From an uncultured archaeon (GTDB lineage Archaea > Asgardarchaeota > Thorarchaeia > Thorarchaeales > Thorarchaeaceae), in contig CAYYQL010000014.1 in assembly GCA_964473825.1 (NCBI GenBank), forward strand, positions 1 to 63,692: 63,692 nucleotides of DNA. Direction: 5' to 3'. Below, piece by piece: positions 20,203 to 36,778 of the stretch. The notes below the pieces were generated by a model that saw nothing but the letters and a program-made list of their open reading frames with translations, made no database searches and had not been told where the DNA came from. Numbering within the stretch: position 1 is the stretch's first letter; each line of letters begins with the position of its first letter. A program made the translations under genes and the position numbers.

Positions 20203-23200
20203 CTAGTCTATGTCGATGCCCAGACTCTCCAGTAGCGCCTTGAGATCAGCCTTTGAGAGGTTCTTGGCCTCTTCAAGTATCGTATCTATCTCATCCGATG
20301 ACATACCCTTCTTTTCGAGTTTCATCTTCAGGTCCTGAAGTTCCTCAGGTAGGTCTCCGAGAGTCGGTTCTTCTTTGGCTTCCGACTCCTCTATCCCTGC
20401 GAGTTCGTCCGCCCTTCTTGCCTCCTCTTGGACTATGACCTCTTTGATGAATCCCGTTCTCTCACTCGGCTTCATCCTTGCAAGGTCAGCTCTGAAGGCC
20501 TCAATCTCTTCGTCGCCCAGGCCAGTAATCTCAGCAAGCCTCTCGAGAAGTTCATTCACCTCAGGCACGATTGCTTGGATAGTTTCACCCTCTACTTCCT
20601 CTAGTGTCTTGGTTACGCCAGAAGGTCGTAGCTCCTCATTCGCAATCTGAAGAATCGTCTTCCTACGAGATGGAACTTCTGCAGGCTTTGGCACTCCTCC
20701 TCTAGCTAGTTTCCGAATCATCGCGTTCATTACCCGTACGAGTTTGGGAACGCTCCAGATCCTCACATACATGAAGAGAAGGGCGGCTAAAATGATGAGT
20801 CCGATGCTTCCGTAGGTTGTTAGCGCCTGAGTCAGGACTTGTGCTGCAGATGGGTCCGAACGTATCTCGAACTGAATCGATCGAGTCTCATAGAGGTCTT
20901 TTGTGAAGGCGACAGTCATCCCAAAGGTGCCTGCTTCGTTTACTTGGAGTAATAGAACATATGTACCGTTACCTAGAGATTGGAGTCTGTCTGGATAGTA
21001 TGTGAGACTGCCGGTCCCGAAGCTCACATCTGGGATTACATCTTCTATTCCTACTCCGTGGTCTAAGTCCCAATAGGTGATGGTGACTTGGACTGCTGAG
21101 CCTGGTATCGTCTGGATGGTTGTATTGGATACCATCAATGTTGTCCGGATTCTTCGTATATCAAGGTCAATCGTGTGAACAGGGACAGAGTACATGGTCC
21201 CAGTGAAGATTACTTCTATGGTGTAGAGACCTATGGGGAGGTCACTGGGAACGTCCAACGCGAAGCTCCCGTTCCCCAGCTGGGTGAGTCCTGCCTGACC
21301 AATCCCCTCGAAGAAAGCCAGTCCATTCACATCTGTAATCGTTTCCTCTGTCAGGTCGTTGATAACAGTCAGAATAGCACTAGTTCCCTCACCTATCGGT
21401 ATCGATAAGCTCTCCGTTCCTTCTATATGGGCGGGTGTTCTAGCCATGGCAAGAATCAACCTGATCGATGCAGTGTCGTAGTTGTCAAGAGAACCCTGAA
21501 CCTGAATCTCATAGTTGCGCGGAACTGTCACATTGATGAACACAGTCACCGTATAAGTTCCATTGGCATTATCAGTAAACGTCCCTGACCCGCCATCCCA
21601 AATGACCGCCAATTCAGCACCGATTATTGGTTGATCATTGTAGGTGTCATTCAGATACAGCAAGTATGTGACATTGTAGTCATGGTATCCGGATTGTGTT
21701 GGCGTGCCTGTTTCGAACTTCGTTGGCAACGGAACAATACTTGCGAGAGATCTTAACTGGGATGTTGAATAACCAACTCTTGATGCGGTCAATCTCAGAT
21801 AGAGTGTTTGTGAGCCTATCAGAGTGGTGTTTATCGTTGCCCTGTAGCTGCCGTCAGGTTGCTCACTAAGTGCACCTGAGAGAGTGCCTAGGGTGTATGT
21901 AAGGTTCGCGCCAAGTATCTTCTGATTGTTGTTCTCGTTTATGTAGTCCACAGATATGACTATTGAGCTACCGTAGTAGACTGTGAGATGGGTGATGTCT
22001 TCATCGATCTGTAACCTAGTCGGAACTGGCACGATATTAACATCGACGGAGGTCTCCAAGAATGCGAAGTTTGTTTCTATTGCCCGAACTATCAACTCGT
22101 ATTCTCCCAGTGCAAACCCTGACGTATTTAGACTGACGGTGTAGAACCCTGGTGTGCCGTTACTGGGAATCACGTAGTCCGTTGCGTTCCACTCGATTGA
22201 TACCTCGTCTGCAATGACAGGCTCGTTTCGACCAGTATCATTGAGATAGATCCAGAAAACAAGGTCGGTGTCCGTGACCACATTGAATATTGATTGCTCA
22301 AGCACTATCTGGCCAGTTCCTCTCGACACTGACAGTGTGAATGTTCTCTGTCGCGTCTGATAGAACTCCCGTGATACTGTAATCTGGGGCTGATAGGTGC
22401 CGTAGTCGTTATCACGCGTGTTCAGGTACAGCTCGTAGGTACCGTCTTCGTTGTCTGTGAAGGTATATTCTGTATCGTTCCAGACAAGTATCGCATCCAT
22501 GCCCGGAACCAGCGTGCCGTAATAGGGTTCTTCCACTTCAATGACAATATGGACCATACTACCCCAATCGGCATAATATGTCGTTCTCTCCATTACTATC
22601 TCAACTGTGAGTGCGGCCGGCTGGATGGTAACAGATACAATACCTGTCGAGTAGTTCTCAAGCTGAGCTTGAATCTCGAACGGGTATTTCTGCGCTATCA
22701 GGCCCGAAGTATTGATTGCAATCTGATAGATGCCCTCAGCAGTTTCTGTTATGACTACGTCAGTCCCATAGAGCGCTTCCCAGTTTGTCGTTACAAGTGC
22801 ATCGCTCACGACACCGCCATGGTCGGCATCAGTGAATGTTACATTGACTCGGTGAATGTCACCTAACGGTTGTGATCCTAATGGGGGCGCTTCTGCAGTA
22901 AGCGTAGTCTGTATCAGCCTGATTGTTGCTGGAACATCGCTTGTGGTTCTATTCGAGTAGAACGGTATTCCGGTCTTTCCCATCGTGATATTGAAGAATA
23001 TGACCCCTGCACCTCCAAACTGGGAGGTGGGAATTCGAATCCTGTAGATTCCTTCACCTATCTCTTCCAAGTAGTAGGTTGCCGAAGTCAGGTTTGTGAA
23101 GGAGACTGTTGCAGAGGCGTTTTCTATACCCACCTCTGAGAGATAGTCCACAAATTCGAATTCAACAGTGATATTATCCAATAGAGGAGTATCTTCGACC

Positions 23201-26200
23201 AATGGAAACAGTATTTGTGTAGGCCGTTCGGTTGTGGTTGCCTGGGTTGTCTTCTCGCGACTAGCATAGTATGGTTCGACGCCGGACTTGTTGACCAGAA
23301 GGCGAATCTCGTGAGCAGTTACCAAGTTCTCTGAATCAAGAACCGTGGACAAGAGGCTTATCTGATATATATCGCCTGTCATATCTAGGCTGTATTCGTC
23401 TGAAGCGATTGGTGTACTAGTCGGTCCGTGAACGAGAGTAATGTGTGTCTTATTGATACTGATGACTTGACCTGTCAGGTAATCAGTGAAACGAAACGAG
23501 AATGTCACGTTTTCCTCGAACGGCGTTTCGCCAGGTGTTTCAGTCATTAGTATTTGGGTTGGCCGCTCCACAACTCTCGCGTTAATGAACCTGCCCGAGG
23601 TCGCGTAGTAAGGCTCTCCACTCCATGACAGGGTCACATTTAGTGAATAAGTCGCAAGCCCGCCGAGAGCTTGAGTGTCAACGAGTATCAGGTAGTCACC
23701 ATTTCCGACATCAGTGAACCAGTAGTTGTCGCCTAGCAGCAGCGAATCAGTTGAATCATCACAAGAAACAAGCACCGCTGCTCCGTTGATCTGGGTTCCA
23801 GTAGTGTCATCAGAATAGGAAACTGTGAAACTCACGTTAGTGCCATAGGGTGCGGGGTCCGGGCTGTCATAGCCAAGCTGTGTGACTCTATTCAATATGG
23901 AGAGACTGAATGTTTCTGTAGCATCAGCGGCGAAGTTGGTGCCGTTGTAGACTATGGTGGCGTTGATCATGAAGATGCCAGTTGTGGAGAAGGAGGTATT
24001 GAGTTTCACCAGATAGTGGCCGTTTCCTAGCCCCGTAACTTCATACCAACCTTCTAGACTGGTGTTTAGCACCAAGTTACCAGTCATGCCGGAGCTACTG
24101 CCTGTAATCAGATCTGTATACACAAACTCGATTGATACGTCGTTCCCCCACTGTGGAGGAGTGAACGAGAGATGTGTTAGCTGAGTGCTGCGTAGGGTCA
24201 CCGTGATGCTAAATGACTTGCTACTGATCGACGTGTAGTACGGCTCTCCCACCCACGATAGGTTCAGGTGTAGTGTAAAAGTACCCGTGCCACCAAGCGT
24301 TGCTGTGTCTATGGCCATCGCGAATGTTCTTGTTCCCGAATCATAGCCCAGTGAGTAACTAACGCCACCCTCATTCAGAGATATGGAGAGGGAACTGGAA
24401 TTCTCGATTTTCACACTCGTCAGGGAGTCTATGTAGCTAAACTGGAAGTATGCATCTTCTCCGTATGGAGTGATATCGGCAGATGAGTAGTCAACATAAG
24501 TTGGTCTCTCTAATATGATTAGACTCACCGTCAGAGTCTTGTTCTCATAGAGTGGACTCACGCCCTCGCTCCATTCGAAATCTATTTGGAACTTGAAGGT
24601 TCCCAGAAGCCCAAAGCGCGATGAATCGAGGGAGAACTTGTAGGTTCCGGGGTTCGCCACGAGCTCCGTTACTTCGAAATCGTTTTGCGTCACAGGGTGT
24701 CCGGAGGTTATTGCTGATATTCTAAGCCATACATCCCCTGTGGATGCATTTGAGATGCGGGTTCCATTCACAGTGTCATAGTAGACGACTGTGAACGTGA
24801 AGTTATTCAAGTAATAGGTTGCTGTTGGCGCCTGTTCGAGAAAGAGGTCGGTTGCCGTCCCAAGGACTCTGACTTCTGTTGATATGGTCTGATTGTAGTA
24901 CTTCTCGACGGCTCCTACCCACCTCGCTTCTATAATCAGATCCTTCCAACCGATGGTCCCCCATTGGTCGCTTGCGATCGTGATGTTATAGTGTCCCTCA
25001 CCCAAGCTGGATTCGGAGACTGAGTATAGCAAATCGGGTGCTCCTGAGGAGCTGACCGATATCTGAACGTTCCCGGAAACGTTGTTTATTCCCGTTCCTA
25101 GATCTGTGTCACGATACTCAACGAGGACAGTTATGTTCTGTCCGTAGGGTGTCTGCTCCACAGGGCTATCAAGAACGAACAGTGTGTTATGGCTTCGCAC
25201 CTGTACACCAATGCTGAAGGTGTGGTTCTGATAGTTTTGTCGTCTGACATTGAACACTACATCGTAGAAGTCATCTGTGCCTGTTATTTCGTCATCATCC
25301 TCAGTGAAGATTGTTATCTCATATACTCCGTCGTCTATCTCGACTACAGTGTAGTTCTGTTCACCGCTCTCGTGGAATGGAGTCCAATTGCAGGTTATGT
25401 AAGATTCGCCACCTGTGATTGGAACGTCGAGCTCGCTGTCAAACCATGTCAACGTGAACGAATCCGATTCTCCTACAGGAATCGACAATCGGTTTGCGGA
25501 ATGCGAAACACGGTTGTAAATCTCTCGTACCTCCACATACATGATCATATCAGCAGTTTCAACGAAAGGTGCCTTTGCTTGAACCGAAACAGGATATTCA
25601 TCCAGAGGTACTCCTGAGCTATCGAGGTCGATCGTATAGACCCCCAATCCCTGTTCGGTCACGTTGTAAGACTGGCTCCAGTTACATGTGACAAGTGCTC
25701 CCTGTATGCCGGTTCCGTTCACATTTTTGAAGGACACGTTGAAGCTTTGGTCGCTCCCTATTGCTCCAGATATTCCCGGGTATTGCGGTGATTCAAGCGT
25801 TGAAGCGTAGTTCACATTAAGTGTGATAGTGGCTTGAGACGAATCATAACTACTCTTGGACCAAGTGAGGTCCACATCATACTGCCCCTTTCCGGGGAGT
25901 ACAGATGTGTCCAGTACCTTGGTGTACTCGCCGTTGCCGCTGTCATCAAATGAATCTGTACCGTCATACCATGTATATTGTAGATTGCCACCAGGAACCA
26001 AGATGTCGCTATCGGTGTCATTGGCCTCTACGATAAGAAGAACAAGGTCTCCGAAGGTTACGTTGGTGGTCCATGTGCCCACTGCATCATCTGGATAGCT
26101 GATTACTAGCTCAGAAGAGTGGGTCACTGTGAAGGCTCTTCTGAAGAATCCAGTGTTCTGCCATTCCCCGTTAGCGGCAAAGTCATTAGTAGATGCCTGA

Positions 26201-27942
26201 ACCATCCAGCTTCCTGCTGAAGAGTTGCTGCCTGCTAGGTTGAAGAAGGGTGTGGCTGCATAACCTGATCCATCTGCAGTTGCATTGACAGAGTACATCT
26301 TGACTCCATCAGCGTCATAGACTGTGATATTGACAATGGCATCTTGGAATGTGCTTCCAACGTATGCACGGACACGTGTGCTATTGCCAGCCCTCAAGTC
26401 TGTTGTACGTTTCCACGTCGTGTCATTGGGGTCATATACCTCCAAGTCCTGAATCATGTTGGGAGCAGACGAGCGAATTCTCCAATAACCATAGCGACCT
26501 GCCTCTGTAGCTACATCGTAAGCTGACACATTGAGATAGCCGTCTCCGGGGTGACCGCCTGACCATCCAGAAGTGAGGTTCGTCGATGGCGCTAGAGGTT
26601 TTGCGACAGAGAACACATCTCGATTCAGAGGAATGGTCTGATTGAAGTAGTACCTGTTGACGTAGCCTGTTGGGATGGTGGCATAGAAATACGTCGTATA
26701 GTTCACTTCAGTTGCGTTTCGCACGACATACCTCTGCCCGTAAGAAGTGGGACTTATCTCATATACTGTGGGTATATCAAGGCGTCTTGCGAACATGTTG
26801 GTTTCGACATCGAACTCAACGATTATCTTGCGATTCGGATCCGGGTTGGTTGGTGTTGGGCTCCATGTGAAGTTGAGCACCACAGGATCATCGACCCAAG
26901 GAGAATCAGCCACCTCGGTCACATAACCTGAACCATACCCCGGGTCAGAGCTGACGCTGATACCGTTCATTGCGAGATTAACATCGGACGGTGCTGCTCT
27001 TGTCTTGACATAGAGTTCGAAATTGTCAACTTTGGCTCTTGGCCCAATCTCAGGGTCATAACCAACGGATGCCTTGCTCCAGAGTCCTATCTCGACAGTA
27101 ACATCTTGGTCTCCGGGCAGACCGAATATGTCTGGCGAAACATAGGTGAGTCCCGAGTCATACCAGGTTTCTTCAGCATCTATGTCGGTGAAGACCATTT
27201 GCCAGACCTGTGAAGCTTCTATGTTCAGATAAATGGCAAATGAGCCGGTCATTCCATAGTGGGTATCATCTTGGGTATCGGCCCAGTAGTCCGTTCTAAA
27301 TGCAGCCCATACAACGTCACCTCTAGGAATGGACATAGACTGGGTCGCATAGGCACGGTCGCCCTGATCATAGTAGAATGGCGCACTTGTTGAACCCGAA
27401 TCTATCTCGAAGTCGAAGGTGCCATCTCCCACCCCATGGCCCGATGAATTGTACGATGATACTGGAGTGCTGTACGAGCCGACGTCCGTGAAGCCGCCCG
27501 TCCAATCCGAGCTGGTCGGGGTGCTGTTGAAGTCCCAGTTCCTGACCCAAGATCTGTTTTCGGTCAACTGGGATATCTGCGCATCAACGCGGTACCCTTC
27601 CCACCCGCTTCCTGTAGGAACACTGACGTTTGTCCCTGTTGTAGTATTGGACGCCAGATACATCATTAGATTGCCTTGGAAGTGGTCTGTTGCATTTCCG
27701 AACTCACCACTGATCAGAGGATCTGCAGTACCTATCCATTCCAGATTGCCTTGTTCACTGACAACGAACTTGTGAAGCAATTCTCCTGGTTCCACCTCAA
27801 CCGTCTGTCCATTACCGACATCAATGGGGATTCCCCTTGTGAGGTCAGGCTTAGTAGCTGCTAAGTTATTCAGATTTGAGAGTATTGGGACAAGGAACAG
27901 GAATACAACTGCGCATGTTGGGAGTAGCCTGCGTCTATTCAT
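20203..27942 (-). CDS. Giant type-I membrane protein (2579 aa): signal peptide, N-terminal beta domain, tandem Ig-like repeats, TM, helical cytoplasmic tail
   Basis: Recurrent ~100-aa units (Y.D.D....I..A ... G.Y.I.LDT..L..G.Y ... T.L); TM followed by WSVPK and a charged tail. Confidence 0.9.
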   Translation of the reverse strand: MNRRRLLPTCAVVFLFLVPILSNLNNLAATKPDLTRGIPIDVGNGQTVEVEPGELLHKFVVSEQGNLEWIGTADPLISGEFGNATDHFQGNLMMYLASNTTTGTNVSVPTGSGWEGYRVDAQISQLTENRSWVRNWDFNSTPTSSDWTGGFTDVGSYSTPVSSYNSSGHGVGDGTFDFEIDSGSTSAPFYYDQGDRAYATQSMSIPRGDVVWAAFRTDYWADTQDDTHYGMTGSFAIYLNIEASQVWQMVFTDIDAEETWYDSGLTYVSPDIFGLPGDQDVTVEIGLWSKASVGYDPEIGPRAKVDNFELYVKTRAAPSDVNLAMNGISVSSDPGYGSGYVTEVADSPWVDDPVVLNFTWSPTPTNPDPNRKIIVEFDVETNMFARRLDIPTVYEISPTSYGQRYVVRNATEVNYTTYFYATIPTGYVNRYYFNQTIPLNRDVFSVAKPLAPSTNLTSGWSGGHPGDGYLNVSAYDVATEAGRYGYWRIRSSAPNMIQDLEVYDPNDTTWKRTTDLRAGNSTRVRAYVGSTFQDAIVNITVYDADGVKMYSVNATADGSGYAATPFFNLAGSNSSAGSWMVQASTNDFAANGEWQNTGFFRRAFTVTHSSELVISYPDDAVGTWTTNVTFGDLVLLIVEANDTDSDILVPGGNLQYTWYDGTDSFDDSGNGEYTKVLDTSVLPGKGQYDVDLTWSKSSYDSSQATITLNVNYASTLESPQYPGISGAIGSDQSFNVSFKNVNGTGIQGALVTCNWSQSYNVTEQGLGVYTIDLDSSGVPLDEYPVSVQAKAPFVETADMIMYVEVREIYNRVSHSANRLSIPVGESDSFTLTWFDSELDVPITGGESYITCNWTPFHESGEQNYTVVEIDDGVYEITIFTEDDDEITGTDDFYDVVFNVRRQNYQNHTFSIGVQVRSHNTLFVLDSPVEQTPYGQNITVLVEYRDTDLGTGINNVSGNVQISVSSSGAPDLLYSVSESSLGEGHYNITIASDQWGTIGWKDLIIEARWVGAVEKYYNQTISTEVRVLGTATDLFLEQAPTATYYLNNFTFTVVYYDTVNGTRISNASTGDVWLRISAITSGHPVTQNDFEVTELVANPGTYKFSLDSSRFGLLGTFKFQIDFEWSEGVSPLYENKTLTVSLIILERPTYVDYSSADITPYGEDAYFQFSYIDSLTSVKIENSSSLSISLNEGGVSYSLGYDSGTRTFAMAIDTATLGGTGTFTLHLNLSWVGEPYYTSISSKSFSITVTLRSTQLTHLSFTPPQWGNDVSIEFVYTDLITGSSSGMTGNLVLNTSLEGWYEVTGLGNGHYLVKLNTSFSTTGIFMINATIVYNGTNFAADATETFSLSILNRVTQLGYDSPDPAPYGTNVSFTVSYSDDTTGTQINGAAVLVSCDDSTDSLLLGDNYWFTDVGNGDYLILVDTQALGGLATYSLNVTLSWSGEPYYATSGRFINARVVERPTQILMTETPGETPFEENVTFSFRFTDYLTGQVISINKTHITLVHGPTSTPIASDEYSLDMTGDIYQISLLSTVLDSENLVTAHEIRLLVNKSGVEPYYASREKTTQATTTERPTQILFPLVEDTPLLDNITVEFEFVDYLSEVGIENASATVSFTNLTSATYYLEEIGEGIYRIRIPTSQFGGAGVIFFNITMGKTGIPFYSNRTTSDVPATIRLIQTTLTAEAPPLGSQPLGDIHRVNVTFTDADHGGVVSDALVTTNWEALYGTDVVITETAEGIYQIAINTSGLIAQKYPFEIQAQLENYSTGIVSVTIQPAALTVEIVMERTTYYADWGSMVHIVIEVEEPYYGTLVPGMDAILVWNDTEYTFTDNEDGTYELYLNTRDNDYGTYQPQITVSREFYQTRQRTFTLSVSRGTGQIVLEQSIFNVVTDTDLVFWIYLNDTGRNEPVIADEVSIEWNATDYVIPSNGTPGFYTVSLNTSGFALGEYELIVRAIETNFAFLETSVDVNIVPVPTRLQIDEDITHLTVYYGSSIVISVDYINENNNQKILGANLTYTLGTLSGALSEQPDGSYRATINTTLIGSQTLYLRLTASRVGYSTSQLRSLASIVPLPTKFETGTPTQSGYHDYNVTYLLYLNDTYNDQPIIGAELAVIWDGGSGTFTDNANGTYTVTVFINVTVPRNYEIQVQGSLDNYDTASIRLILAMARTPAHIEGTESLSIPIGEGTSAILTVINDLTEETITDVNGLAFFEGIGQAGLTQLGNGSFALDVPSDLPIGLYTIEVIFTGTMYSVPVHTIDLDIRRIRTTLMVSNTTIQTIPGSAVQVTITYWDLDHGVGIEDVIPDVSFGTGSLTYYPDRLQSLGNGTYVLLLQVNEAGTFGMTVAFTKDLYETRSIQFEIRSDPSAAQVLTQALTTYGSIGLIILAALLFMYVRIWSVPKLVRVMNAMIRKLARGGVPKPAEVPSRRKTILQIANEELRPSGVTKTLEEVEGETIQAIVPEVNELLERLAEITGLGDEEIEAFRADLARMKPSERTGFIKEVIVQEEARRADELAGIEESEAKEEPTLGDLPEELQDLKMKLEKKGMSSDEIDTILEEAKNLSKADLKALLESLGIDID

Positions 27943-30900
27943 TCTGCATCCCCTCCTAGCTGGTCAAGGAGAGCATCTATCTCCGCTTTCGAGAGGTTCC
28001 TCGCCTGTTCTATCATCAATTCGGCTTCTGCACCGTCGATACCCATCTCAACGAGTCTTTCGCGTAGATGATCCAGTTCTTCCTCGGTGAGTTTCCTCTC
28101 TAGTTCTATTGTTTCCTTGTCTGGTTCGGCAAGTTTCTCTGCCTCCACAATGTCCTTAGCACGTCGCGCACGTTCTTGTTTCAGGACTTCGCTGATGAAA
28201 CCTGCACGTTCACTGGGCCTCATTTTCTCAAGATCCCCTCTTAGCGTGTCTACATCTTCAGGTGCCAATCCGACGACAACTGCGAGTTCTTTCAAGAGCT
28301 CTTCGATATCAAGAGTTGATATGTCAACTGTCGAGGGCGCAACGTCAGCTGACCCCTTCATGATTCTCAGCGGCCGCAAATCCTCGTTCATCGTATCGAT
28401 GATTACCTGTTTTCTGTTACGGACAGGAGCTGGCTCAGGGATTTTCCCTCTGGATAGCTGTCGGACCATCGCCCTGATTCTCCTAAGCATTTTGGGAACT
28501 GACCAAACTCGGATGTAGGCTGCTGCAAAAGCGACAAGGCCAAGGATGGCAAGCGCCAGATAGCCGAAGCTTGTATAGAGGGCCTGTTGCTCAGGGCTGA
28601 GTGTGACGTAGACGATGCCAGAATAGGTGCTGGACTCGTAGTTGGTTTTGTTCAGTTGAATCCTGTACTCGTAACCCTGCACGTTAGTTCCCATGAAAGC
28701 GAATACATAGGTGCCATTTCCAAAGTCGATAGATGATTCTGGCAGCACCTGAAGTGATGTGCCTGACGTTGAGTTCACAGCCATGGGAATCCCTGTCTCA
28801 TGGTCGATATCCCAATATGTTACCCTCACGAATACTGTCTGACCTGAGAATACGGTTCCTGGCGGGGGCGTGACTAGTAGCTCAGTTCTGATCTGTCTGA
28901 TAGTCATTTCCACGATGATTTCTGCCCTGCTGTAATTCCCCCGAGTGAATGTAACTCGTATTATGTATGGGTTTTCGCGAACGTCGAGTGATTGAATACC
29001 TGATTCAACGGGCCCAAATCGGTATGATCCATTTCCTAGGTTTGTTAGGGGATCAGTACCGAATTCCCAGATCGCAGTTGCCGTAGCATCTGTAATCAGA
29101 ACGTGGTTCAAGGTATCATTGAGTTTGAACAACTGTGTGTAGTCATCGCTTACAGGGATGTCTACCTCAAGTGTTCCTATCACCTCTGTTGGAATGGGCA
29201 AGACTCGCAGTTTCACTGAGCTGTACCCGAACTCATAGCGGGCCTTCTGGAATGAAACAGATATGTCGTATGGAATGATGCCTGCTTGAACCAATGAAGT
29301 ATCCAGCGTGAACGAATATGTGCCATTTTCTTCCTGAAGAAGCATCCCCGTGTATTCGCCGATGGTGAATGATGTTGTTGCATCATCAACACCCATCGAA
29401 TTTGTTTCATCCCAGAATGAGAATGAGAAAGTAGTCAACTGTCCGTAATAGACATCTTGAGAAGCATCAGTGAGTATCTCAACTGTCGTCCGAATCCTTG
29501 TGACTGTTAGTGTGAATTGGATTGACGCAGAAGCATACCCGTCTTTAGTGCTTGACACTCTCAAGATGTACTCCTGGATGGCTAATTCGGTGGTGTTCAA
29601 AAGAGCGTAATACCACCCATTTTCGATCTCGGAGAGATTGCCGGAGGTGCCTGATATACTGTAGATTAGGTTAGCACCTGTCACCCCGGTGCCGAGGTCC
29701 GTATTGTTCAGATGGACAGTGACATTAGCGAGAGTTCCTGCAACGGCGCTTAGCACTGTCCGTCCGTCGACGGGTGTGATTTCTGTGTTTATCTCCCGAA
29801 CCTCAATCGTGAGCTGGATACTGACACTCTTGTAGTTTGTAGAGCTTGCTTGGACCTGAATCTGATAGTTGCGTATACTAGCTCCTTCGACTGTGAAATG
29901 CCCGACGTATCGTGAGAGGGTAGAGTTCCAAATCAAGGTGCCAGAGCCGCCTGTCCAAGCGAACGAAAGCGTCCCGTCTAGGATGATAGTGTCATTAGCT
30001 TGGACTAAGTATTGTGCTTCAATAGTGACATTCTGCCCATTCACCACTACCAATTCGTCCAGACTCCCGACAAGACGGGCGGGAACCTTGGATATTCGTA
30101 TTTGGAATTCCCTCTGTCTAGATTCGTAATTGGCCAAAGCGAAGGTTATGGAGAGCGTGTATTCTCCTGCGTTATAGGCCAACGTCGATAAATTCAGCGA
30201 GTAGGCACCGTTTTCTATCTCCACCATTGCAAATGTATCTGATAGAATCGTTAGGTTGACGTTTCCGCCCACAACGCCAGTACCATTTCTTGCGTTCGTG
30301 ATGTTTACGTTGATTGTGACAACTGTTCCCCACTCTGGACTCTCAGGTTGGGCATCTAAGTCGATGTCAACAGGGAGGGCTGCCAGAACTATGTCTGCTA
30401 TTATCGTCCTGTTGAAATGGAGATATAATGAAGCATATACTTCGAAGGTGTATTCTCCCGAATCGAGAGGGCGTGTGTCAATCGTGAGATAGTATACTCC
30501 GCCAGCGCCTTCTAGTATTGTAGCAGTAGAGCCGTAGAGTGACTGCCAGTTTGTAGTGACATTTGCTCCTTCGATGCCGAGACCTGTGTTTATGCTTGTG
30601 AACGTAACGTTCGCCTCTAGAGTATCGCCAAGATAGTATGTAACACCTGTTGGAACAACAAGAGCGAGCTCTGTTGACACGGGATTCAGGGTGATACTGA
30701 ATGACAACTGTGTCTTGTTCTGATAGAAGGGAGTCCCTATCCAGGTGAAATTCGCAGAAAAGCGATACTTGCCGATGGTTGAAAACCCGGTAGTGTTTAT
30801 TCTGACTTCATATGATCCGTCTTCACCGACAAGGACCCAGTACTCGATGACTGATACATTGGAGCAAGATACTGTGACTTCGGCTTCCGATATCCCGTTT

Positions 30901-33900
30901 CCTGTGAGATAGTCCGTGTATCTTAAGATGGCCGTTGCATTATAGAATATGTCTGCAGGGGGACTCGAGAGAACACTGGCCTGAGTGAGTCTCTGGGTGA
31001 TAGTTGCCTCTGTAGAGGTGCTGGAGTTTGCATAGAATGGTATTGAGTCTCCCCAGAAGAACTTTACAGATATTGGATGTTTGCTTACCAGTTCGGAAGC
31101 CAGCAGTGTGGACTGGATTGAAATCGAGTACACGCCGTTGGTGCCGGACAGAGAGTACTGGCTGCTGTTGAGCGTTTCCCCTGCTCCATGGCCAAGAAGG
31201 AGTTCCAGTTTGCTCACAGATATTCCTGAGCCGTCTAGATCATCCGTGACTGTTATTTCGAATGTGACGTTCGAAAGATATGGGGCGTTGAGTGGCGATT
31301 TTGATATGGTAATCGTCGCAGGTCGGCGAGATACCTCTACTTCAGCGATTCTGGTTCTATTCTGGTAGTAGGGACTTCCAGTATAGCTAGCCTCGATTAC
31401 TATTGAATACGTACCGAATCCTCCAAGAGCCTCAGTAGAGATTCTGATTCGGTATTGACCATTTCCAAGATAATCGACGAAGTAGTTCACTCCTAGTTCT
31501 AGGGGTTCTGAGGACGAATTGCATGCGGCAAGAATTGTTGCGTTCGAGATACCTCTATCGGTATTATCATCTGAGTAGGTTACCGTAATGTTTGCCTGTG
31601 TGAGATACGGTGCCAAATCAGGCAGGTCACTCGTTAGTTGTGCCCTTCTTACTACGACATTGAGATAGAAGTAATCGGTTGCGTCCTGACAGTATCTAGT
31701 TCCGCCGTAGATGATCGTCGCGTTTATTGTGAAGGTGCCCAAGGTTTCCAGTACACTTGTGTTCAGGATGACCGTGTAGGTTCCGTCAAGGTTGTCGTAT
31801 ACTGTGTAATTGCCCTCGAGTGAGGCATCTAGTGTGAGAGTGCCTCCCTGCATGCCTGTACTGGTGTAGTCATCAAGATCTGTGTATGTGACCAATAGGG
31901 TGAGATTGTTTGCGAACTGTACGGGCCCATACGCTCCGTGAGTGAGCTCAGTGAATCGTTCTCTCACCGTGATAGGAATCTCTACTGATGTTCTGTTTTG
32001 GTAAAAAGGCTCGCCAGCCCATGTGAAGTTCAAGTGGAATGAGTGACTTCCGGGTATCCAAGAAGAGGTATTAAGCTCTATGAAGAATGTTCCAGTTTCA
32101 TCTCCTTCGTAGTAGATGGTGTATCCTATTGCCTCTTGAATCGAAAGGTAGAGCGTCGATGCATTTAGAATTGCCTCTCCTGATAGAACATCCCTGTAGA
32201 CTACAGTCAGGTTCACGAGCTCATCATATGGCACTGTAGGAAGTGGTGTCCAGTCAACACTGGTCTGCCGCTGCGTTGTATAGACTGTGATTATGATGGT
32301 CTGATTCTCGTACAGCGGGAGTTGACCTTTCGTCCAGTTGAATTGAATACGCAAATCACAGGAAATGAGTCCACTGAGATAGGAAGTATCGAACTCAATC
32401 TGGTATTCTCCGGGGTTATTGATAGGATCGAGCTCGGTTATGACCATGAGGTCTTGAAACAGGGCTTGGCCAGCTGTCAACACATCGATGTATAGGTGAA
32501 CATTGAATGGATATGACCCAGTTGCATTCACTATCCCTGTGTCGTTTCCGACATCATAGTATATCACGCTGAAGGTGAGATTCTCTCCGTATGGTGTCAT
32601 GACCGGACTCTGTCCGATGAAGATGTCAGTCGGGGTACTCGTGATTCTGACACTTGTTGTCACGGTTTCATTGGAGAACTTGACTGTAGGTCCAGTCCAG
32701 TTAGCGTAGATAATCAGGTCTTTTGTTCCAGTGGAACCCCACTGGTTTGCAGGTAGTGATATGATATATTCCCCTGACTGGGTCCCGTTTACCACGTCAT
32801 AGATGATTGATGGGAGCCCCGGGCTCTCAATGTATATCAAGGCGTTAGAGCCAACTATTCCCGTATCGGCATCCACATCATAGTAGACAACAGATATGAT
32901 AACATCTGCTGTGTACGGGGTCGGATCGATTGGGTTTGTCAGATAGAATGATGTGAGATGGGTTTTGAGCTGCACCTTCACATTGAACGTATGATTCTGG
33001 GCGCCGTATCTCTTAACATTGAACTCCACTGTATAGGTGTCAAGAACATCATCATCCAGCGAGTATAGGTCGACACGGTAGACTCCGGGTGTGGCTGTTT
33101 CTGTGACATTGTAATCTTCGAAGCTATAGCCGTGCAGCTCTGACCAGTTGCAGGTTATGGCATCCGCCGAGTCTGTGATTGGCTGGTCATGATCCGTGTC
33201 AGTATAGGTTATGGTGAATGAGGTTGTGTATCCCACTGGAAGCGACAGCTGGCTTGTTGAGGGAATAGCCGATGTAAACAACTCGCGCACTTCCAAGGAG
33301 AGCACAATCGTCCGTGATTCGTAGTAGTCCTTTGTGGCAGTGATGGCAACGTCATAGTCACCGATGCTGACTCCGTCAGTGCCCAGTGCCAGAGTGTAAT
33401 AGCCTGGGTTTCCTGTCAGAGGTGCTACCGAGTAGCTGTCATATGTCCAATCCGTGGTAATCTGTGCATCAGTTATGGGGTCCCCTTTTTGGTCCTTGAA
33501 CTGCACTGTCATCTCGGCGTCGTAACTCATGGGAACGTCTACTCCTGGAGCATCAGGAGAGAGAAGATCCGTAGTGTAGATGGCGTTGATGGTGAAGTTT
33601 CTCGACAATGAGTCATAGAAGTCCTTGTTCCACTCAAGAGAAACACTGAACGCACCGTTTGATGCAAGCTCTCCGGTGTCCAGTGTTATGCTATACTCTC
33701 CCGTTCCCAGATCATTCATCGTTCCCGACCCGGCAGCCCAAGAATAGGTCATGACACCACCGGCAAGCAGATCTGTGTTATCGATATCTTGAACTCTTAG
33801 CTGCAGAAGAATCAGGTCACCATGAGTCACATTCTTCGTCCACGTCGCTTCAGAGCCCACTGGATATTGCACGCTCATGTCAGTGGAGTGCGTTACGCTG

Positions 33901-36617
33901 AACTTCCTTCTAAAGAAGCCGACATTGTGAATTGCAGATTGCGAGACCTGGTCCGTAACAAATGCTTGGACCTCCCAGTTTCCAACTGATGCATTATAGG
34001 GGTTAAGATTGACGAACTCCGTGACAGCATATCCAGAGCTGTTCACGGTAGCTTGAAGTGATGTCCAGAGCGTTCCGTTCGGCAAGTATATCGAGAAATG
34101 AACAATATCTGATGCATAGTCTGGCGAGAGTGAAACCATGAAACGTGTGTCATCATACGCTCTGAAGTCATTTGTTCTAAGCCATGATCCGGTATCATCA
34201 TGCCAGACCTTCAAGGTATCGATTATGTTGGGAGAAGCCCCCTTGAGGTACCAGAAGCCGTTCTGAGCACTGGTGGTTACGTCATAGACAGAAACGTTCA
34301 GAGCACCGTCACCAGGTTCTCCCAGACTCCAACCAGATGTGAGATTGTCCAAGCGGTAACTCGGCTCTCCCACATGATCTATATCTCGGTTGCTTGGTAG
34401 TGAAACATTGAAGAAGAAGCGGTTTTCATAGCCGCCGGGCACAGCAACGTAGTGGTTTGTGTCCCACCTTATATCGGTGCCATTTTGGGCGAGGTAGTTG
34501 TCACCATTTGTGAACGTCTCAGTGTCGGAGACCGTCTGCACACCGTATCTTCTTGCAAAGGCAGTTACGAGAACATCAATCTCAACTGTTATCTCTTCAT
34601 CAGGGTCTGGAGGATTGGGAGTGGGGGTCCATGAGAAGTTAGCATATGCACTGCCATCTGTCCATGGCGTTGTCGGCTGATATGAAACAGTTCCGAGTCC
34701 GAGAACGGGCGTTGCTCCCTCAAGTACGTTTGACACGTCTTTCCCATTCATCTGTAAATTGATTGACTCTGGAGTCGCCTTGGCCTTGATATAAACTGCA
34801 ATGTCGTCGAAACGTCCCTCGGGCTTGATATCATCTGTTCTGTACCATTCAGCATCAGTCACCCGCAGGCCAACCATGATTGAAACATTAGGGAGCGTGA
34901 GATAAGCGGGGTCTGTCGGAATCAAACCTGTTGAGTACCAGGTATTGTCATTAGCAATTCCATCAAACGCCATATTCCAGAGATAGTCTCCTCCTTCGTC
35001 TGGGTCACCGACAGTCACGAACAGCTCAAAGAATCCTGTTGGATTGTAGTTATCCCAATATCTCCCACGGTTATCAGCATAGTAGTCAAGTGAGACTCCG
35101 GCCCATGTGATCTCTCCTCGGTCTATCGTTATGTCTTGTTGGACAAATGCCTTATCACCCGGATTATACCAAAAACCATAGAGGCCTCCCTCATTCCTGT
35201 GATAGTATCCATCTATCATCGTTGTTGCTGCAGCGTCACCATCCCCTCCATCCGCCATCCGTCTGGCTATCTTGCGGGTGGTGCCGCTTCTCTCAGATGT
35301 GTATACATAGTTAGATCCGTTAAGGGCTATCCCGTAGTTGAATCTGAACTGACCGTTGCCACTTCCGTCAGTGCCCCACTGACCCTGATATGAACCAGTT
35401 GAGGAGAAGTACTGCACTCTGTCGTTCCCGACATCTGCGACGTAAATGATGCCACCTGAGCTGACTGCGACCCCTACTGGAGTCCTGAAGTATCCGTTCC
35501 CTCCTCCGCCATAGAACGAGTTCTGGCTACCGACCAGACTCTGGTAGCTACCCGTTGAGCTGAACCTCTGCACTCTACAGTTGCTAGTGTCTGACACAAT
35601 AACCTCGTCGTTGTTTTGATTGATTGCGATGCCCGTTGGGCGACGGAGCTGCCCAGTACTCGTCCCGGTTCCTCCAAATTGCCCCTGATAGATCCCGTGC
35701 ATATTGAAGTACTGCACTCTGTCATTGCCCATGTCTGCGACGTAGACGTATCCATTTGAGTTCCGGATTGCAACTCCCATCGGGCTGTGGAATTCGGATG
35801 CTACTTCCCCTGTGCTTCCCCACTGGCTGACGTATGCGCCTTGAGAATCAAACAGCTGGATTCTATCATTCCCAGAATCAGCAATATACACAAATCCAGT
35901 GGAGTTAATCGCAATCCCCGTGGGGTAACTGAACTCGCCATCGCCCGTGCCTGTACTTCCCCATTGAAACTGAAATACACCCGTGGTATCGAAGACCTGT
36001 ATTCGATTGTTGTAGCTGTCAACAACGTAGACATAGCCAGAGCTGTTAATAGCTATCCCCCAGGGATCCGTGAAGTTGCCATTTTCAGTACCCCTTGATC
36101 CCCACTGATTTTGATAGTTACCATTCGAAGTGAAGAACTGGACTCTGTTGTTTCCGTTGAAAGCCCCCTCAAGTTGCGAGCTTCCATACACCCATGCCCC
36201 TGATTCCTCGAAGTCGTTGTTAACTAACCAAGTCCGGTTTTCAGTGATATCTGTTACATTGCCGAAGACCTCATAGCCCTCCCAGTTGTCCCCTAGTGGC
36301 ACGGACAGGTTTGCAGTAGTGGTTGTCCCTGAAGGATGATAGACCATCTGTTCACTTGAGAACGAATCGGTGCGTGCACCGTATTCTGATGCGATGAGTG
36401 GATCTCCAATGCCCGTTACTTGATTTGGAGCAGAAGCTATCTCATACTTCATGAGTACTTCATCAGGACCCACATGTATCTTGGTTCCGTCATCAAGCGT
36501 TACCGTTTCTCCTTCCGGCAGGTTCCATTCAAGTCCCAAGTCGGGGAACAGATTAGTAGAACCAAACAGCAAGATAATAATCGCCACGAATACTAGTATC
36601 GTTTTTCGCTTCTGCAT
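27939..36617 (-). CDS. Giant type-I membrane protein (~2892 aa), paralog of the downstream gene, with inserted NHL beta-propeller
   Basis: ATG 36617 preceded by GGTGA; colinear similarity to 20203..27942; NHL repeats P.GIA....VYVAD..N.RVQ.F; ATGA overlap with next gene. Confidence 0.9.
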   Translation of the reverse strand: MQKRKTILVFVAIIILLFGSTNLFPDLGLEWNLPEGETVTLDDGTKIHVGPDEVLMKYEIASAPNQVTGIGDPLIASEYGARTDSFSSEQMVYHPSGTTTTANLSVPLGDNWEGYEVFGNVTDITENRTWLVNNDFEESGAWVYGSSQLEGAFNGNNRVQFFTSNGNYQNQWGSRGTENGNFTDPWGIAINSSGYVYVVDSYNNRIQVFDTTGVFQFQWGSTGTGDGEFSYPTGIAINSTGFVYIADSGNDRIQLFDSQGAYVSQWGSTGEVASEFHSPMGVAIRNSNGYVYVADMGNDRVQYFNMHGIYQGQFGGTGTSTGQLRRPTGIAINQNNDEVIVSDTSNCRVQRFSSTGSYQSLVGSQNSFYGGGGNGYFRTPVGVAVSSGGIIYVADVGNDRVQYFSSTGSYQGQWGTDGSGNGQFRFNYGIALNGSNYVYTSERSGTTRKIARRMADGGDGDAAATTMIDGYYHRNEGGLYGFWYNPGDKAFVQQDITIDRGEITWAGVSLDYYADNRGRYWDNYNPTGFFELFVTVGDPDEGGDYLWNMAFDGIANDNTWYSTGLIPTDPAYLTLPNVSIMVGLRVTDAEWYRTDDIKPEGRFDDIAVYIKAKATPESINLQMNGKDVSNVLEGATPVLGLGTVSYQPTTPWTDGSAYANFSWTPTPNPPDPDEEITVEIDVLVTAFARRYGVQTVSDTETFTNGDNYLAQNGTDIRWDTNHYVAVPGGYENRFFFNVSLPSNRDIDHVGEPSYRLDNLTSGWSLGEPGDGALNVSVYDVTTSAQNGFWYLKGASPNIIDTLKVWHDDTGSWLRTNDFRAYDDTRFMVSLSPDYASDIVHFSIYLPNGTLWTSLQATVNSSGYAVTEFVNLNPYNASVGNWEVQAFVTDQVSQSAIHNVGFFRRKFSVTHSTDMSVQYPVGSEATWTKNVTHGDLILLQLRVQDIDNTDLLAGGVMTYSWAAGSGTMNDLGTGEYSITLDTGELASNGAFSVSLEWNKDFYDSLSRNFTINAIYTTDLLSPDAPGVDVPMSYDAEMTVQFKDQKGDPITDAQITTDWTYDSYSVAPLTGNPGYYTLALGTDGVSIGDYDVAITATKDYYESRTIVLSLEVRELFTSAIPSTSQLSLPVGYTTSFTITYTDTDHDQPITDSADAITCNWSELHGYSFEDYNVTETATPGVYRVDLYSLDDDVLDTYTVEFNVKRYGAQNHTFNVKVQLKTHLTSFYLTNPIDPTPYTADVIISVVYYDVDADTGIVGSNALIYIESPGLPSIIYDVVNGTQSGEYIISLPANQWGSTGTKDLIIYANWTGPTVKFSNETVTTSVRITSTPTDIFIGQSPVMTPYGENLTFSVIYYDVGNDTGIVNATGSYPFNVHLYIDVLTAGQALFQDLMVITELDPINNPGEYQIEFDTSYLSGLISCDLRIQFNWTKGQLPLYENQTIIITVYTTQRQTSVDWTPLPTVPYDELVNLTVVYRDVLSGEAILNASTLYLSIQEAIGYTIYYEGDETGTFFIELNTSSWIPGSHSFHLNFTWAGEPFYQNRTSVEIPITVRERFTELTHGAYGPVQFANNLTLLVTYTDLDDYTSTGMQGGTLTLDASLEGNYTVYDNLDGTYTVILNTSVLETLGTFTINATIIYGGTRYCQDATDYFYLNVVVRRAQLTSDLPDLAPYLTQANITVTYSDDNTDRGISNATILAACNSSSEPLELGVNYFVDYLGNGQYRIRISTEALGGFGTYSIVIEASYTGSPYYQNRTRIAEVEVSRRPATITISKSPLNAPYLSNVTFEITVTDDLDGSGISVSKLELLLGHGAGETLNSSQYSLSGTNGVYSISIQSTLLASELVSKHPISVKFFWGDSIPFYANSSTSTEATITQRLTQASVLSSPPADIFYNATAILRYTDYLTGNGISEAEVTVSCSNVSVIEYWVLVGEDGSYEVRINTTGFSTIGKYRFSANFTWIGTPFYQNKTQLSFSITLNPVSTELALVVPTGVTYYLGDTLEANVTFTSINTGLGIEGANVTTNWQSLYGSTATILEGAGGVYYLTIDTRPLDSGEYTFEVYASLYLHFNRTIIADIVLAALPVDIDLDAQPESPEWGTVVTINVNITNARNGTGVVGGNVNLTILSDTFAMVEIENGAYSLNLSTLAYNAGEYTLSITFALANYESRQREFQIRISKVPARLVGSLDELVVVNGQNVTIEAQYLVQANDTIILDGTLSFAWTGGSGTLIWNSTLSRYVGHFTVEGASIRNYQIQVQASSTNYKSVSIQLTIEVREINTEITPVDGRTVLSAVAGTLANVTVHLNNTDLGTGVTGANLIYSISGTSGNLSEIENGWYYALLNTTELAIQEYILRVSSTKDGYASASIQFTLTVTRIRTTVEILTDASQDVYYGQLTTFSFSFWDETNSMGVDDATTSFTIGEYTGMLLQEENGTYSFTLDTSLVQAGIIPYDISVSFQKARYEFGYSSVKLRVLPIPTEVIGTLEVDIPVSDDYTQLFKLNDTLNHVLITDATATAIWEFGTDPLTNLGNGSYRFGPVESGIQSLDVRENPYIIRVTFTRGNYSRAEIIVEMTIRQIRTELLVTPPPGTVFSGQTVFVRVTYWDIDHETGIPMAVNSTSGTSLQVLPESSIDFGNGTYVFAFMGTNVQGYEYRIQLNKTNYESSTYSGIVYVTLSPEQQALYTSFGYLALAILGLVAFAAAYIRVWSVPKMLRRIRAMVRQLSRGKIPEPAPVRNRKQVIIDTMNEDLRPLRIMKGSADVAPSTVDISTLDIEELLKELAVVVGLAPEDVDTLRGDLEKMRPSERAGFISEVLKQERARRAKDIVEAEKLAEPDKETIELERKLTEEELDHLRERLVEMGIDGAEAELMIEQARNLSKAEIDALLDQLGGDAE
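35290..36165 (-). repeat. NHL repeats (5 full plus 2 half = 6 blades) inside giant protein; boundaries approximate
   Basis: Repeated F..P.GIA.....YVYVAD.GNDRVQ.F...G.Y..QWG..G...G units. Confidence 0.9.
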
Positions 36618-36778
36618 AGGACTTTCACCGGCAATTCTCGCTTGACGAATCTCGGACAACAGCTAGCTAGCTAGCGTTGTCTTCTCTTCTCAATGATGCA
36701 CTGTAATCTAGAGAGTCTTTTTAATAATACCCTCATCTTGTCGTTCTATAAAATGAGATGTTGTTCGTTTTTTCGCCA

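Follow-up and report, generated by a model that had tools for sequence, protein, structure and literature searches.

A translationally coupled pair of giant, predicted surface proteins conserved across the archaeal class Thorarchaeia

Introduction

Two giant genes, A and B, lie next to each other in the genome of an uncultured archaeon of the class Thorarchaeia (GenBank assembly GCA_964473825.1), on a stretch of 63,692 nucleotides of contig CAYYQL010000014.1 that is referred to here as the window. Together they occupy 16.4 kb of a ~3.3-Mb genome, and they raise the question of whether their products form a single structure at the cell surface, and what the part of each protein that would reach the cytoplasm might do there. 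The original prediction, made from the window alone, regarded them as a heterodimeric receptor or adhesin with an intracellular output, different in kind from the proteins of surface layers (S-layers). The pair is real, ancient and class-wide in the Thorarchaeia. As to its role, we give an even chance to the reading in which these archaea have one constitutive cell-surface unit with A and B as its two subunits. The original prediction had allowed that the family might already have been characterised; a literature search found no paper describing it.

Organization and conservation of the gene pair

In the window, A is the upstream gene and B the downstream one (Table 1). The end of A and the beginning of B overlap in the sequence ATGA, which holds the stop codon of the former and the start codon of the latter; this junction, already noted in the original prediction, is confirmed by the open reading frames (ORFs) and by the sequence itself. 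A Shine-Dalgarno-like GGAGG is placed inside the end of A, and it recurs there at most of 20 other A/B junctions examined. A fusion of A and B by read-through or frameshift was considered and ruled out, since B opens with a signal peptide of its own. At the other end of the pair, the ORF of A spans 27939..36659 when opened from a TTG, and its first ATG, at 36617, gives a protein of 2,892 aa. This ATG is most plausibly the start, because GGTGA stands 7 nt before it, because it is the start of the gene-caller form (P0069, also 2,892 aa) and because an orthologue from the same genus is equally long. Further upstream, the motif TTTTATA may act as the promoter TATA box of A. A run of CTAG repeats (gctagctagctagct; 36658-36673, minus strand) lies ~45-60 nt before the ATG, in the presumed 5' leader of A. 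Codon usage, taken as a stand-in for expression level, does not set A and B apart, either on the first three axes of relative synonymous codon usage or in GC3, in a genome with no strong axis; the ribosomal-protein cluster used as reference in this comparison is incomplete and ends at a contig edge. A search for RNA sequencing runs that contain the locus listed none.

This pair is a core feature of the class. A query with the tail of B matches 82 of 87 Thorarchaeia genomes, among them all 24 of high quality, and covers all 17 genera; in at least 35 genomes, tails of the A type and of the B type lie 7.6-7.8 kb from each other on one strand, always with A first. For the study of junctions, repeats and phylogeny, 27 complete pairs were extracted (54 proteins, those of the window included). 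A is upstream of B in all 27; the junction is an ATGA overlap in 18 and TAATG in 3, and in the remaining pairs the genes are 4-14 nt apart, or the first ATG lies further in and a GTG or TTG start is likely. The same 4-nt A/B overlap is present in two metagenome contigs. Both in these contigs and in the window, the pair is followed downstream by tyrS, a gene for an LPG-synthase-like membrane protein and a PHP gene, and the upstream neighbours vary among the three.

Where duplication of the system is seen, it occurs as whole pairs: one contig carries an A-B-A-B tandem (G061:C22, ~5900-30200), and one metagenome-assembled genome (MAG) has two pairs at separate loci (EU527_02725/30 and EU527_06780/85), of which one has an NHL propeller and the other does not. 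Two genomes, one in which A and B are seemingly unlinked (G059) and one in which B is missing (G010), were not counted as exceptions because they consist of a single 'contig', are 77-86% complete, contain truncated frames and are probably concatenated bins. The original prediction had left room for homologues that usually occur singly or unlinked; instead, A and B are linked, ordered and translationally coupled across the class. Strict pairing does not extend to the family as a whole, in which a solitary third paralogue is found on another contig.

Layout of the two proteins

A and B are colinear paralogues of one layout. BLASTP aligns them over 2,443 columns with 35% identity (E = 0), and their repeats correspond position for position, in agreement with the original description of two clearly diverged proteins that keep the same arrangement. 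The N-terminal head motifs quoted in that description are present in both translations, and each protein has a signal peptide for Sec export, one transmembrane helix and a conserved tail, as judged from hydropathy and from the conservation between the tails of A and B.

The head was modelled for B (residues 28-640) with AlphaFold2, from an alignment of 52 orthologues and with a mean pLDDT of 86; the fold of the A head was assigned from this model and not from a model of A. Residues ~100-290 of the model resemble CBM, MAM, legume-lectin and Eph ligand-binding domains (Z 9-10.4), i.e., a modelled jelly-roll, which is a common fold from which alone no function follows. Residues 467-583 resemble the macroglobulin (MG) domains of alpha2-macroglobulin and C5 (Z ~10, root-mean-square deviation 2.0-2.3), and the Foldseek matches of the head include a Nitrosopumilus S-layer protein with a low TM-score. 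The single insertion that had been seen to break the colinearity of the two proteins is an NHL beta-propeller in A (PF01436, 113 bits against a cut-off of 20, in four stretches). It adds ~300 aa net (~335 residues against ~37 in B) and separates two head segments that in B follow each other directly; the propeller is missing from B and from the A orthologues of ~2,600 aa.

The stalk consists in both proteins of 17 repeats of ~100 aa each, identified with an iterated hidden Markov model (HMM). One MG-type Ig domain precedes them, which gives 18 Ig-like domains per protein, at the low end of the 18-20 estimated originally. A profile of the 34 repeats of A and B matches the Big domains of FdeC (4e9l, E 3.6e-7) and reaches E 0.053 with invasin (1cwv); single repeats match Big_3_5 of Pfam with E values down to 8.6e-7, and Invasin_D3 and Big_1 weakly. 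The matches to FdeC and to these three Pfam families assign the stalk, at the level of sequence profiles, to the invasin/intimin type of Ig-like domains. No anchoring module (beta-barrel, type I secretion system (T1SS) retention domain or LPXTG) and no von Willebrand factor A (VWA) domain was found in A or B by Pfam.

In the ectodomains, N-x-S/T sequons number 71 in A and 67 in B, where shuffled sequences give 32.2 +/- 5.0 and 25.7 +/- 4.4 (z = 7.8 and z = 9.4, respectively); the tails hold one each. The dense sequons of the original prediction are thereby upheld, and their excess suggests that the ectodomains are densely N-glycosylated.

Membrane helix and cytoplasmic tail

Besides the signal peptide, each protein has a single hydrophobic helix, located near the C-terminus. 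Lysines and arginines number 9-11 in the 40 residues after this helix and 0-2 in the 20 residues before it, and because of this concentration the last 177-184 residues should be cytoplasmic; the extracellular location that the original prediction had kept in view is not the one to which the flanking charges point. The tails are acidic, with a pI of 4.9 in A (184 aa) and 4.6 in B (177 aa), and their last residues are E and D. The model of the tail is all-helical: an amphipathic helix next to the membrane is followed by a proline-rich segment and a three-helix bundle, and an acidic linker leads to a small helical unit at the C-terminus. The juxtamembrane proline-rich segment is invariant, many other invariant residues are specific to one subunit, and in both proteins conservation peaks in mid-tail, with a mean identity of 0.70-0.71 among orthologues.

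In the Pfam, PDB and ESM Atlas searches, the tail could be assigned neither to a described family nor to a solved fold. Against Pfam, up to E 10, it gave only sub-threshold scraps (DUF5333, SAP, RecX_HTH1, Pex14_N) and no kinase, HAMP, GGDEF, GTPase-binding or other known output domain. A wide fold search (VIA) yielded at best a Z of 7.4 over 62 residues, which is under the noise for helical models; Foldseek returned no match in the PDB at E <= 0.001, the shape search of the ESM Atlas gave TM <= 0.26 and its feature search no usable match. Two proposals on the make-up of the tail were discarded, namely an internal duplication relating the middle bundle to the C-terminal unit (hhalign probability 3.4%), and a helix-hairpin-helix/UBA-like reading of the motifs 'h..h.G(L/I/M)G...E(I/K)', which had no support from Pfam or fold searches.

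A profile of the membrane helix and tail, run against 1.84 billion representatives, retrieved only 157 proteins at E <= 0.001. Where these are full-length, the tail stands at the C-terminus of a very large protein, and the short matches resemble contig fragments. As modelled, the tail is folded; it is strongly conserved and confined to giant surface proteins of the Thorarchaeia and, at a greater distance, of the Hermodarchaeia, in which remote relatives with the same layout occur. Adjacent giant tail-bearing paralogues, 32% identical to each other, are encoded in a MAG labelled 'Promethearchaeota archaeon' (P0263/P0275, ACFFCJ_05405/05410); the motifs of their tails are related, 'KIPGLG..EK' followed by 'IP.KDR.WF', and remote tail matches of a similar kind bear Hermodarchaeia names. 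Outside the Thorarchaeia, a phylum-wide genome search gave weak tail matches only (E 1e-4 to 1e-11). The 23 matches of a 5,830-aa protein (P0244) to the last 30 positions of the profile were judged spurious, this protein being a repetitive bacterial adhesin of the LapA type. In a protein of 182 aa (P0270), the last 50 residues equal the consensus of the A tail and follow an unrelated N-terminal part with a membrane helix; it could be a small tail-motif protein or an assembly chimera.

One explanation for such a tail would be that the pair is a transmembrane signalling receptor of an integrin-like kind, in which a ligand bound by the head acts through the membrane helix and the tails recruit a signalling or cytoskeletal effector. 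The degree of conservation of the mid-tail, the restriction of the tail to giant surface proteins and the invariance of its proline-rich segment agree with this proposal. Nevertheless, the tail has none of the output domains sought in Pfam and no fold match above noise, no conserved signalling gene is found nearby, where the upstream neighbours vary, and a conformational signal would have to travel through 18 Ig domains in series, which is mechanically implausible; we regard a signalling receptor as highly improbable. The 'intracellular output' originally attributed to the tail gains no support either, as the searches revealed neither an enzymatic or signalling domain nor a recognisable fold.

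Evolution of the pair

In a phylogeny based on 2,547 aligned columns, A and B are reciprocally monophyletic (support 1.0) and their topologies mirror each other, and the other Thorarchaeia family, represented by a single genome, is basal in both clades. For these reasons the tree places the A/B duplication before the class Thorarchaeia. The patristic distances within A and within B are correlated with r = 0.97 and, as far as the alignment reveals, the two copies have co-diverged without visible gene conversion.

A stalk of 17 repeats is present in all 54 proteins of the 27 genomes. All 17 were detected in 39 proteins; in the other 15, one repeat is below the threshold at a gap of ~200 aa in a conserved position, and one protein misses two, the last repeat included. 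B measures 2,554-2,601 aa, a range that leaves out four proteins whose first ATG is well inside the frame (2,493-2,568 aa), and A measures 2,564-2,622 aa where the propeller is absent and 2,845-2,901 aa where it is present. The mean identity of orthologues is 0.37-0.59 in each region and repeat of the ectodomain. Typical adhesins have expandable stalks, whereas the ectodomains of A and B are evenly conserved; this evenness, together with the invariant number of domains, favours a structural assembly with position-specific contacts.

One surface unit or two independent proteins

If A and B are subunits of one surface unit, its formation can be pictured as follows. Translational coupling would provide the two chains in equal amounts. 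The last part of A to be made is its membrane-proximal tail, and the signal peptide of B would then emerge at the same stretch of membrane; because the ribosome that finishes A sits at the membrane, B would be inserted beside A, and side-by-side assembly of the two would be favoured. The assembled rods, tens of nanometres long, would hold the heads far from the membrane, where these may bind glycans or partner cells; the rods may constitute a tall outer coat or a layer of adhesive fibres, and both tails would dock a cytoplasmic partner that fixes or positions them. Judged from the genes, the A-B heterodimer is a well-motivated inference.

Alternatively, A and B could be independent surface adhesins that share an operon, i.e., subfunctionalised proteins that act as monomers or homo-oligomers on their own ligands and are coupled for the sake of co-expression. 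One member of the family does occur alone. The genome of the window contains a third, solitary paralogue that shares the stalk repeats and the tail and exceeds 3,500 aa in length (G000:C43, L008 1-10569, plus strand); it runs off the start of its contig and includes an internal run of N, i.e., an assembly gap. Elsewhere, a looser group designated 'C-type', of ~2,000-5,500 aa, stands beside A and B. The solitary paralogue implies that the architecture needs no partner in principle. In addition, the NHL-bearing A heads of two genomes (G030, L039; G053, L041) cluster with distant NHL-bearing lineages, and the B heads and the rest of A group with their own genus. This suggests that the A head of these genomes was replaced by recombination; heads can therefore change in A without B, and the propeller has been gained or lost with no matching change in B. 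Finally, the subunit-specific invariant residues of the tails fit separate partners.

With the exception of the tail residues and the 'C-type' group, which bear on the independent adhesins only, these observations also count directly against the proposal of a single A-B unit, and so does the fact that the contact between A and B is inferred rather than directly observed. A complex prediction for the membrane helix and tail of A with those of B, run without alignments, yielded a score of 0.00 and no verdict. Once the whole-protein background is removed, the distances of A and B co-vary best in the heads and in stalk repeats 1-3, with exploratory partial r values of 0.70 for the jelly-roll and 0.82 for the middle sandwich, but partial Mantel tests on related genomes overstate significance and this co-variation is a hint only, a further reason for caution about the single unit. 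Even so, independent adhesins would have to account for this region-specific co-variation, for an A-then-B order and an overlap kept since before the class diverged, for duplications that come in units of a pair and for an equal number of domains in A and B everywhere; on balance they look unlikely to us.

Relation to known surface proteins

By architecture, the closest analogue of A and B is PySLP of Pyrobaculum arsenaticum, an S-layer protein of 292 kDa and 37 nm in height, with 19 Ig-like domains and a C-terminal membrane anchor (bioRxiv 10.64898/2026.08.21.746120); the comparison was made with its description in that preprint. Both systems have chains of ~290 kDa with a signal peptide, a distal specialised region, serial Ig-like domains (19 in PySLP, 18 in A and B) and a single C-terminal membrane helix followed by a conserved tail. 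At full extension, rods of A and B would be expected to measure roughly 70-90 nm, compared with the 37 nm of PySLP. The contrast with S-layer proteins drawn in the original prediction is therefore weaker in terms of layout, and the large tail is the part of it that stands. Members of the PySLP family, from Thermoproteota, have a short, highly basic tail that ends in lysine, and PySLP itself forms homohexamers from one gene (bioRxiv 10.64898/2026.08.21.746120), whereas the coupled genes A and B are paralogues of ancient origin, and their tail of 177-184 aa is acidic and helical. The PySLP-like proteins are also defined by assembly into a paracrystalline lattice, a structure that A and B may or may not form. 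No PDB chain matched B at E <= 0.01, in a copy of the database that possibly lacks the PySLP coordinates.

This likeness raises the possibility that A and B together make an ordered 'colossal' S-layer, with the heads and distal Ig domains as a lattice canopy, the proximal Ig domains as pillars and the tail as a reinforcement of the anchor. Apart from size and layout, the universality of the pair as a single core locus, the invariant number of domains, the even conservation of the stalk, the dense predicted glycosylation and the low-scoring Nitrosopumilus match of the head are in line with such a layer. However, the PySLP tail is not of the large, folded and acidic kind found in A and B, the surfaces of cultured Lokiarchaeia are irregular and non-crystalline (10.1101/2025.07.22.663070), and there is no sequence match to a solved S-layer protein at E <= 0.01. 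A classic S-layer is argued against because of this tail and of those irregular surfaces, and we hold the 'colossal' version to be quite unlikely.

By lineage, the closest analogues are the adhesin-like membrane proteins of Nerearchaeum marumarumayae, a cultured member of the Lokiarchaeia, which have FN3 domains and beta-propellers of the WD40 type and are encoded by diverse single genes (bioRxiv 10.1101/2025.07.22.663070). Like A and B, these surface proteins of Asgard archaea combine a signal peptide with many beta-sandwich repeats and an anchor that spans the membrane, and some have a distal beta-propeller, as gene A has its NHL propeller; in contrast with A and B, no conserved pairing, fixed repeat number or large conserved cytoplasmic tail was reported for them. 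The bacterial Big-repeat adhesins (intimin/invasin, FdeC, and the SiiE and LapA types) share with A and B the Big-type stalk and the logic of head, stalk and anchor. They are anchored by an outer-membrane barrel, a T1SS retention module or sortase, whereas A and B would rely on the C-terminal helix and tail; their repeat number varies between strains, while that of A and B is invariant at 17; and A and B, unlike them, are archaeal proteins with predicted N-glycosylation.

With integrin alpha/beta and cadherin-type receptors the relation is one of analogy, as no homology of A and B to integrins or cadherins was found in the Pfam and PDB searches. The analogy lies in two predicted single-pass type I chains that are encoded together, in a propeller in the head of one chain, and in cytoplasmic tails that could dock partners. 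The differences are that integrin alpha and beta are unrelated chains and A and B are 35% identical paralogues, that integrin alpha has a propeller of seven blades and the NHL propeller of A has six and occurs in only some of the A orthologues, and that A and B lack a VWA/beta-I domain and, as read in the translations, the NPxY motif in both tails. A stronger version of the two-subunit reading, in which an obligate A-B heterodimer is an adhesion receptor whose lectin/propeller heads bind partner cells or matrix and whose family-specific tails tie the rod to the cytoskeleton or the membrane-remodelling machinery of the Asgard cell, seems to us decidedly improbable; if true, archaeal relatives of eukaryotes would have evolved, independently, an integrin-like connection between outside and inside. 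Overall, A and B extend the theme of giant Ig-repeat surface proteins, and what distinguishes them is the use of paralogous coupled subunits and the family-specific cytoplasmic tail.

Coordinates and neighbouring genes

The features of the pair are collected in Table 1. The gene directly upstream of A (36779-38968, minus strand) encodes a protein of 729 aa with a signal peptide and a C-terminal membrane helix, which shows the exact zinc-site pattern of metzincins, HExxHxxGxxH (HETMHAIGMGH), and has no Pfam match. This metzincin-like gene was considered as a conserved partner of the pair and rejected, as the upstream neighbours differ in other genomes. Next, 39362-41629 (plus strand) encodes 755 aa with many membrane helices, an H-box-like 'HDITN' and a C-terminal part resembling a kinase ATPase domain, with no Pfam match at 1e-3; a GAF-PAS-PAS histidine kinase gene (41598-43625, minus strand) is convergent with it. 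Farther along, a protein of 639 aa (51858-53777, minus strand) combines VIT and VWA domains, a pair typical of extracellular proteins.

Table 1. Genes A and B in the window and the features assigned to them; localization and glycosylation are predicted.
Feature	Position	Strand	Description	Evidence
Gene A	27939..36617	minus	2,892 aa, 318 kDa, pI 4.3; type I membrane glycoprotein; upstream member	ORF, translation
Gene B	20203..27942	minus	2,579 aa, 283 kDa, pI 4.2; type I membrane glycoprotein; downstream member	ORF, translation
Candidate archaeal TATA box	36747..36753	minus	TTTTATA, ~130 nt upstream of A ATG	sequence
A signal peptide	36531..36617	minus	~residues 1-29	basic N-terminus, then hydrophobic stretch
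A NHL beta-propeller	35175..36182	minus	six-bladed, in head loop	Pfam NHL E 1.8e-33; DUF5128 E 2.9e-12
A head remainder	33873..35174	minus	rest of jelly-roll, middle beta-sandwich, MG-like Ig	colinear with B residues 189-612
A stalk	28620..33872	minus	17 Big-type Ig-like repeats	iterated repeat HMM, 17 matches
A transmembrane helix	28494..28583	minus		hydropathy window; positive-inside flank
A cytoplasmic tail	27942..28493	minus	184 aa, helical, acidic	conserved with B tail
Shine-Dalgarno-like motif for B	27952..27956	minus	GGAGG, within last codons of A, 9 nt upstream of B ATG	sequence
ATGA overlap	27939..27942	minus	A stop (TGA) with B start (ATG)	sequence
B head	26464..27855	minus	N-terminal segment, jelly-roll (CBM/MAM/lectin-like), middle beta-sandwich	AlphaFold2 model
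B MG-type Ig-like domain	26107..26463	minus		weak Pfam MG2 match; model fold matches
B stalk	20872..26106	minus	17 Big-type Ig-like repeats	repeat HMM, profile matches
B transmembrane helix	20737..20829	minus		hydropathy; AlphaFold2 model; flank charge
B cytoplasmic tail	20206..20736	minus	177 aa	AlphaFold2 model, pLDDT 84

Conclusions

The literature search found no cultured or imaged member of the Thorarchaeia; the pair is the most conspicuous conserved envelope component in their genomes. It offers a concrete target for antibodies, proteomics and cryo-electron tomography. If A and B form a two-component coat, they would widen the range of archaeal envelope designs, with paralogous hetero-subunits in place of one S-layer protein. 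It is unusual for an archaeal surface rod to carry a large folded tail, and the binding partner of this tail would tell whether Asgard archaea couple their surface to internal structures, a matter that bears on the origin of the eukaryotic cell surface and cortex.

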